A DNA stretch of 64,000 bases from Escherichia coli (lineage in GTDB: Bacteria; Pseudomonadota; Gammaproteobacteria; Enterobacterales; Enterobacteriaceae): assembly GCF_044324785.1 (NCBI RefSeq), contig NZ_CP172127.1; one strand, given 5' to 3'. The notes beneath the pieces were generated by a model. It was not told the DNA's origin. It saw only the letters and a list, made by a program, of their open reading frames with translations, and made no database searches. Each line of letters begins with the position of its first letter. The stretch's first letter is position 1. Positions 22,942 through 23,295 of this stretch are shown one piece after another. The position numbers were made by a program, and so were the translations under genes.

Positions 22942-23295
22942 AACGATCTCCTGAAGAAGAGGTAACCGGGTATTCCACACACCCGGAATGTTGTGCACTC
23001 ACTCTAATTTTCAAAAGTAATCACAACAAGATTATTTATGATTAAATGTGACGCGACCCGCAAATAATTCCACATGGATAGAGTGGGATTCACACAACGA
23101 AATAATTATTCATTTAAATTCATTTAGTTAATTGAATTACGCATTCCATTAAATCTTTCCACACTCAAAATCAACAACAACTTCCCTGGCAAAAAGTCAA
23201 AAAATGGTCATTGCCTTCCTGAAAAAATAGTGTCAGGATTAATCAAAACCAATCACATGTTGATTCGAATTGAACTATCATGAAGGTAAATGGCG
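22942..23295. promoter_or_regulatory. Divergent ulaA / ulaG control region (UlaR operators, CRP/IHF sites by established knowledge)
   Basis: 354-bp AT-rich intergenic region between divergent ulaA and ulaG starts; individual sites not mapped here. Confidence 0.6.

Follow-up and report, generated by a model that had tools for sequence, protein, structure and literature searches.

The 354-bp spacer between the divergent genes ulaA and ulaG, found in a 64-kb window of Escherichia coli DNA (the whole 64,000-nt stretch analysed), is the known and well-studied control region of the E. coli ula (L-ascorbate, vitamin C) regulon. Very probably it comprises two divergent promoters, composite operators for the repressor UlaR, a DNA loop formed with the aid of IHF, and a CRP site at ulaA. 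The identity of the locus, its motifs, their enrichment and conservation, and a quantised spacing between the two operator sets were all observed here. The analysis adds coordinates for the operators, promoters and CRP site, a 41-bp operator architecture and evidence of helical phasing; a known system is thereby refined, not changed. The switch is of the textbook sugar-regulon type, so its confirmation adds no new biology, and the practical value lies in the annotation of this strain.

The spacer occupies exactly 354 bp (22942-23295) between a 465-aa ORF (21544-22941), whose product matched the NCBIfam model for PTS ascorbate IIC, and a 354-aa ORF, whose product matched the equivalog for L-ascorbate-6-phosphate lactonase (NF008688, 715 bits; cut-off 306). 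UlaA, UlaB, UlaC, UlaG and UlaR each matched their own NCBIfam equivalog; ulaB and ulaC lie further along the minus strand beyond ulaA, and ulaR is found downstream of ulaG on the plus strand (24468-25223). The spacer is AT-rich, with a core GC content of 0.305-0.315 against 0.50-0.58 in the flanking genes. The preliminary description had spoken of an AT-rich divergent region of 354 bp between ulaA and ulaG, with which the ORF coordinates, GC content and equivalogs agree; its assignment to ula control is upheld by the equivalogs, the downstream position of ulaR, the near-identity of the spacer to that of strain K-12 and the literature on UlaR. An in-frame ATG at 23290, two codons upstream of the annotated ulaG start, gives a mechanically called ORF of 356 aa instead of 354 aa, and a mini-ORF of seven codons, ATGAAGGTAAATGGCGATGAGTAA (23280-23303), overlaps the ulaG start codon out of frame.

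A megablast search with the spacer plus 100-bp flanks as the query matched the spacer in 5,220 of 5,426 complete E. coli genomes, always between genes annotated as ulaA and ulaG; at least 80% of the query was covered in 5,219 of them. The region had no match in 206 of the 5,426 genomes, and in about 1,065 E. coli genomes the version present shared only 90-95% identity, a divergent one by the standard of the species. Strain R14 differs in the spacer of the CRP site, in the ulaA leader and in the central region. In E. coli E138 (NZ_AP022351.1, locus 2071-3216), the ulaA half of the spacer has given way to an IS1 element, together with all of ulaA to ulaD and most of ulaE; of the control region only the right-hand portion, beginning at window position 23080, is left, along with ulaG and ulaR.

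The spacer of K-12 MG1655 is likewise 354 bp long and has the same flanking genes; the two sequences are identical at 349 of 354 positions (98.6%) and differ by five substitutions and no indels, so anything mapped in K-12 transfers base for base. The substitutions (23103, 23110, 23141, 23162 and 23259) all fall outside the pentamer cores of the operators and the promoter hexamers described below. Since they spare every core element, ascorbate regulation should behave in this strain as it does in K-12. Those at 23103 and 23110 lie in an AT-rich block adjoining the candidate IHF site. Beside that site, ATTCATTTA occurs twice at 23108-23126, the copies being 10 bp apart (repeat family D5); this exact tandem repeat distinguishes the present strain from K-12, where a T-to-C change at 23110 disrupts the first copy. 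As in the K-12 system, each promoter has two of the four conserved operator copies, a CRP-like site is confined to the ulaA side, and an IHF-like site falls between the two promoters.

A repeat search of the spacer returned a four-member direct family (TCAAAAGTAATCACAAC and its relatives; family D1) and an inverted pair around 23011-23051 (I1). The core common to these repeats is a 13-mer, TCA-N5-AATCA. Exact copies of this motif numbered eight on the two strands of the 64-kb window, compared with 2.26 expected, and five of the eight lay inside the 354-bp spacer (Table 1). Shuffling the spacer 5,000 times with its dinucleotides preserved gave a mean of 0.077 copies, and no shuffle reached the five observed. 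UlaR operators had been expected in this spacer but could not be pinpointed by eye; with five 13-mers placed, they are recognisable as TCA-N5-AATCA, and a spacer devoid of any operator motif is not what was found. The assignment of UlaR as the binder comes from the literature.

Table 1. Features of the ulaA/ulaG control region, in window coordinates (regulatory elements are predictions from the sequence)
Feature	Position	Strand	Remarks
ulaA start codon ATG	22939..22941	-	Left spacer edge
ulaA Shine-Dalgarno GGAG	22948..22951	-	Block 22942-22951 is 70-99% conserved in 81 species
ulaA transcription start, predicted	22994 (within about 2 nt)	-	Set 7 nt beyond the conserved -10; leader length about 53 nt
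ulaA -10 hexamer TAGAGT, predicted	23001..23006	-	Present in 69/81 species
ulaA -35 hexamer TTGTTG, predicted	23024..23029	-	17-bp promoter spacer; TTGTTG, TTGTGG or TTTTTG across species
ulaA composite UlaR operator, predicted	23011..23051	-	41 bp; 13-mers TCAAAAGTAATCA and TCACATTTAATCA; read toward ulaA, TCACATTTAATCATAAATAATCTTGTTGTGATTACTTTTGA
13-mer TCAAAAGTAATCA	23011-23023	+	Outer 13-mer of ulaA composite; inverted pair with TCACATTTAATCA
Central one-mismatch copy (AATCT)	23041-23029	-	Inside ulaA composite
13-mer TCACATTTAATCA	23051-23039	-	Outer 13-mer of ulaA composite
CRP-like site ATTTGCGGGTCGCGTCACATTT	23044..23065	-	Perfect half TCACATTT, partial half TGCGG
Candidate IHF site ATTCATTTAGTTA	23118..23130	+	Two mismatches to WATCAANNNNTTR
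ulaG -35 hexamer TTGCCT, predicted	23211..23216	+	TTGC in at least 80% of species, TTGCAA commonest
ulaG extended -10 TGtCAGGAT, predicted	23231..23239	+	17-bp promoter spacer; TG in 79/81 species; commonest hexamers CAnnAT
ulaG transcription start, predicted	23246 (within about 2 nt)	+	Derived from the extended -10, which is conserved; leader length about 50 nt
ulaG composite UlaR operator, predicted	23233..23273	+	41 bp; same architecture as ulaA composite; read toward ulaG, TCAGGATTAATCAAAACCAATCACATGTTGATTCGAATTGA
13-mer TCAGGATTAATCA	23233-23245	+	In ulaG composite
13-mer TCAAAACCAATCA	23243-23255	+	In ulaG composite
13-mer TCAATTCGAATCA	23273-23261	-	In ulaG composite
ulaG Shine-Dalgarno core AAGG	23283..23286	+	
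ulaG start codon ATG	23296..23298	+	Right spacer edge; start identical in K-12 RefSeq

The 13-mers make up two 41-bp composites, one for each promoter. In both, AATCA, AATC(A/T) and TGATT pentamers follow one another exactly 10 bp apart, and each composite points toward its own gene. Counted from the predicted transcription starts, the ulaA composite spans about -57 to -17, taking in the -35 hexamer, part of the promoter spacer and the proximal half of the CRP-like site, while the ulaG composite spans about -13 to +28. Given these positions over the two predicted promoters, both composites would block RNA polymerase. The intermediate copies of the 13-mer may provide extra contacts.

The ulaG locus was collected from 80 other Enterobacterales species, from Escherichia to Serratia, Hafnia, Cedecea and Enterobacillus, and the 81 spacers were aligned. 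In all species retaining the upstream DNA, ulaA and ulaG were divergent, the spacer measured 351-440 bp and ulaR lay downstream. The conserved blocks in the 81 spacers were the ulaA ribosome-binding site, 22992-23007, 23011-23033, 23036-23051, 23059-23069, 23104-23135 (moderately conserved), the TTGC at 23211-23214, and 23230-23273. Both outer 13-mers on the ulaA side were perfect in 80 of the 81 species; on the ulaG side, the 13-mers at 23243, 23273 and 23233 were perfect in 65, 67 and 30 species, respectively. The ulaA-side pentamers at 23019, 23029 and 23039 were kept in 77-81 of the 81 species and the ulaG-side pentamers at 23241, 23251 and 23261 in 65-74, although the species are related, so that these counts, like the phasing statistic given below, come from non-independent samples. 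Among E. coli and its nearest relatives, the operator cores were free of substitutions, which fell in the ulaA leader, the CRP spacer and the central region. One contig labelled Chryseobacterium sp. 18061 (CACSKA010000007.1) has a ula locus of enterobacterial type, in which the gene order is unchanged and UlaG is 94% identical; it probably represents contamination or a mislabelled assembly.

Two operators with a common conserved sequence are reportedly present at each ula promoter, and the four near-invariant 13-mers, which form two inverted pairs with two copies per promoter, fit the four published operators; that they would be bound by UlaR is taken from the literature. UlaR is a DeoR-family repressor whose tetramer binds four operator sequences (PMC3219644; the tetramer also in PMC10991401, both citing Garces 2008). 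Genomic SELEX located a high-affinity UlaR site in the spacer between ulaG and ulaABCDEF, and a weaker peak upstream of ulaR (PMC4797297, PMC5934670). It is extremely unlikely that the TCA-N5-AATCA repeats are instead bound by another protein, such as IHF or a nucleoid protein, with UlaR binding elsewhere in the spacer. The IHF core WATCAA does resemble AATCA(A), and the best match to the IHF consensus in the spacer, AATCAACATGTGA at 23253-23265 with one mismatch, falls inside the ulaG composite; this match, however, probably reflects the likeness of AATCA to the IHF core. Against binding by another protein, there are exactly four near-invariant 13-mers, two per promoter, as in the published set of four operators (PMC3219644). 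Copies of the 13-mer also persist wherever ulaR is adjacent, including in Serratia, Hafnia and Enterobacillus, and a copy with one mismatch is found upstream of ulaR, at the second and weaker of the UlaR peaks seen by SELEX.

A further point against another binding protein is that neither the repeat search nor the 81-spacer alignment revealed any other repeated conserved motif in the spacer. The fourth member of family D1, TCAAAATCAACAACAAC at 23165-23181, was rejected as an operator: its conservation was only 10-40%, and the sequence is not intact in another E. coli strain. Repeats of the TTCCACA type (family D6; 22972 and 23067) were also discarded, as they were not conserved across species.

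Two promoters had been anticipated in this region, and two conserved promoter-like hexamer pairs could indeed be placed, with a transcription start predicted for each. Variants of the ulaA -10 hexamer (TAAAGT, TACAGT) retain T1, A2 and T6, and the TGTGC around the predicted ulaA start (22992-22996) is conserved. With position-weight scoring, the ulaA pair ranked third and the ulaG pair second on their own strands. A stricter consensus promoter scan found neither of the proposed promoters; its sole match was ATCACA-18-TATCAT. If this pair (ATCACA at 23252-23257 and, after 18 bp, TATCAT at 23276-23281) were the ulaG promoter, transcription would start near 23288, the ulaG-side operators would extend across the -35 hexamer and the DNA upstream of it, a mirror image of the ulaA side, and the general picture would be unchanged. 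The pair was also the top plus-strand pair in the scoring (8.45 versus 8.37), and the composite operators would then sit similarly relative to both promoters. However, TATCAT is poorly conserved (10-60% per position), and a start near 23288 leaves a leader of only 7 nt that excludes the AAGG Shine-Dalgarno core. What is conserved is the proposed ulaG promoter, that is, the TTGC of its -35 hexamer, the TG of its extended -10 (79 of 81 species) and CAnnAT. The ATCACA-18-TATCAT pair was thus set aside as the ulaG promoter on account of its poor conservation and the excluded ribosome-binding site, and we consider it an unlikely alternative to the pair given in Table 1.

No Rfam family was found in the spacer or the leaders, where the only matches were two at chance level to eukaryotic families (E-values of 0.08 and 0.39). 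The predicted ulaA 5' leader contains a possible 8-bp hairpin, CCGGGUGU/ACCCGG (22966-22986, minus strand). The fold of the 65-nt ulaA leader (-20.4 kcal/mol) was not significant relative to shuffled sequences (z = -1.49), and its sequence is not conserved between genera. A reading of the spacer as structured RNA was therefore rejected, there being no Rfam family and no significant leader hairpin.

A CRP site had also been expected, and a conserved CRP-like site is present on the ulaA side, although its match to the consensus is not by itself above chance. The segment 23047-23062 is the only match in the spacer to TGTGA-N6-TCACA with two or fewer mismatches, two of the ten core positions being mismatched, and such matches are not enriched in the 64-kb window (16 versus 25.8 expected); a CRP site called from consensus counts alone was accordingly discarded. 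The case for the site rests instead on its position and its pattern of conservation. The site is centred at 23054.5, at -60.5 relative to the predicted ulaA start, a class I position. Of the 81 species, 79 keep TGTGA; the 6-7 bp spacer that follows is free to vary, and CGCAA(A/T)T is conserved despite its place beyond the composite operator; the TGTGA half could be conserved solely as part of the operator. CRP reportedly affects ulaABCDEF only, and the distance of about 190 bp between the CRP-like site and the predicted ulaG start fits this. At class I CRP-dependent promoters such as lac P1, CRP is centred at -61.5. The ulaA site resembles that of lac P1 in its centre, about 60.5 bp upstream of the predicted start, and in having one consensus half-site (TCACATTT); it differs in that its other half-site is weak (TGCGG), its proximal half overlaps a repressor operator and the ulaA start is a predicted one. 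The proximal half-site, TCACA, is at the same time the TCA arm of one operator, from which we infer that UlaR and CRP probably compete for it. Activation of ulaABCDEF by CRP, and its repression by IHF and UlaR, have been reported (bioRxiv 10.1101/2020.09.08.288738).

The distance between the two operator sets was taken from the ulaA-side minus-strand 13-mer to the ulaG-side minus-strand 13-mer and could be measured in 68 species. It was 221-222 bp in 10 species, 230-234 bp in 54 and 241-243 bp in four, while in none of the 68 was it 223-229 or 235-240 bp. Phase concentration at a period of 10.5 bp reached R = 0.88, a descriptive value only, since the species are related; as controls, spacer length gave an R of 0.01 and the ulaA ATG-to-operator distance one of 0.23. 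In the present strain, the centres of the composites (23031 and 23253) are separated by 222 bp, or some 21 turns of the helix. Operator distances that differ by one helical turn agree with the published model in which a UlaR tetramer holds a DNA loop, and this quantisation in some 70 species lends the model a small amount of independent comparative support. No earlier report of quantised spacing as comparative evidence for the loop was found in the literature searched; together with the extended-operator reading discussed below, this point is put forward tentatively.

Shared ancestry might account for the spacing, with each operator set acting independently and no loop being formed: most species belong to a single class (230-234 bp), related genera share classes, and the statistic ignores phylogeny. 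We regard this as very unlikely. Spacer length and gene-to-operator distances vary continuously, whereas the operator-to-operator distance skips 223-229 and 235-240 bp. The classes, moreover, recur in separate lineages and differ even within one genus (221 bp in Buttiauxella brennerae, 241 bp in B. izardii). Campos and co-workers are said to have reported in 2004 that full repression at each promoter requires the operators of the other, and that IHF aids the looping. A role for IHF in repression is also given in the literature (bioRxiv 10.1101/2020.09.08.288738, PMC8546960); specifically, an ihf mutant derepresses ulaADEFG (PMC8546960).

The IHF site that had been expected could be placed only as a prediction. 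The best candidate, ATTCATTTAGTTA at 23118-23130, has two mismatches and is offered with reserve, AT-rich DNA yielding many matches of this quality. It has an AT-rich flank and belongs to a moderately conserved AT-rich block (23104-23135) situated halfway from one predicted start to the other, and in the corresponding alignment column 29 of the 81 species have one mismatch or none to WATCAANNNNTTR, some of them a perfect AATCAATAAATTA.

In the mechanism proposed for this loop, the literature supplies the repression, the switch from tetramer to dimers and the parts played by IHF and CRP. The promoters of ulaABCDEF and ulaG, both of the sigma-70 type and arranged back to back, would each be governed by a 41-bp composite UlaR operator made up of an inverted TCA-N5-AATCA pair, which would give the four published operators, plus a central half-site. 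When ascorbate is absent, a UlaR tetramer would grip both composites at once, looping out the AT-rich DNA between their centres, helped by an IHF-induced bend near the midpoint. The loop would block the ulaA -35 hexamer and promoter spacer, as well as ulaG from its -10 hexamer through about +28. L-ascorbate-6-phosphate, produced during uptake by UlaABC, splits the tetramer to give dimers unable to bind DNA (PMC3219644, PMC10991401), after which cAMP-CRP, about 61 bp upstream of the ulaA start, would activate ulaABCDEF only.

This arrangement has parallels elsewhere. DeoR at deo, GlpR at glp and AgaR at aga are DeoR-family repressors responding to sugar phosphates, with multiple phased operators and looping. 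Like the ula system, they combine an oligomerising repressor with a DeoR-type HTH, short repeats on one face of the helix, cooperating distant operator sets, and a phosphorylated sugar as the inducer. The AATCA half-site and the 41-bp arrangement appear specific to ula.

An extended reading of UlaR regulation is possible, though we would not count on it. UlaR may recognise more than four operators, namely a 41-bp array at each promoter with three to five TCA/AATCA elements phased at exactly 10 bp; ulaR may be autoregulated, not constitutive, through a one-mismatch copy of the motif; and UlaR and CRP may be mutually exclusive at ulaA through the common TCACA. The one-mismatch copy upstream of ulaR is TCTAAAAAAATCAAAT (24436-24451), and at least one copy with one mismatch or none was found upstream of ulaR in 72 of the 81 spacers. 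Its coincidence with the weaker UlaR SELEX peak (PMC4797297, PMC5934670) suggests that ulaR is autoregulated through this motif. The 60 bp upstream of ulaR (24408-24467) are 80-99% conserved in the 81 species.

Directly after the ulaG stop codon, an inverted repeat with a 12-nt loop, CCGGATAGCG ... CGCTATCCGG, is present at 24374-24405. It is followed by no T-run and is thus not a canonical intrinsic terminator; it may be REP-like, and apart from a CCGG it is poorly conserved across species. Elsewhere in the window, an RpsF leader (Rfam RF02893, 110 bits) lies at 17802-17886 and three tandem tRNA-Gly(GCC) genes lie at 50165-50463, all on the minus strand.
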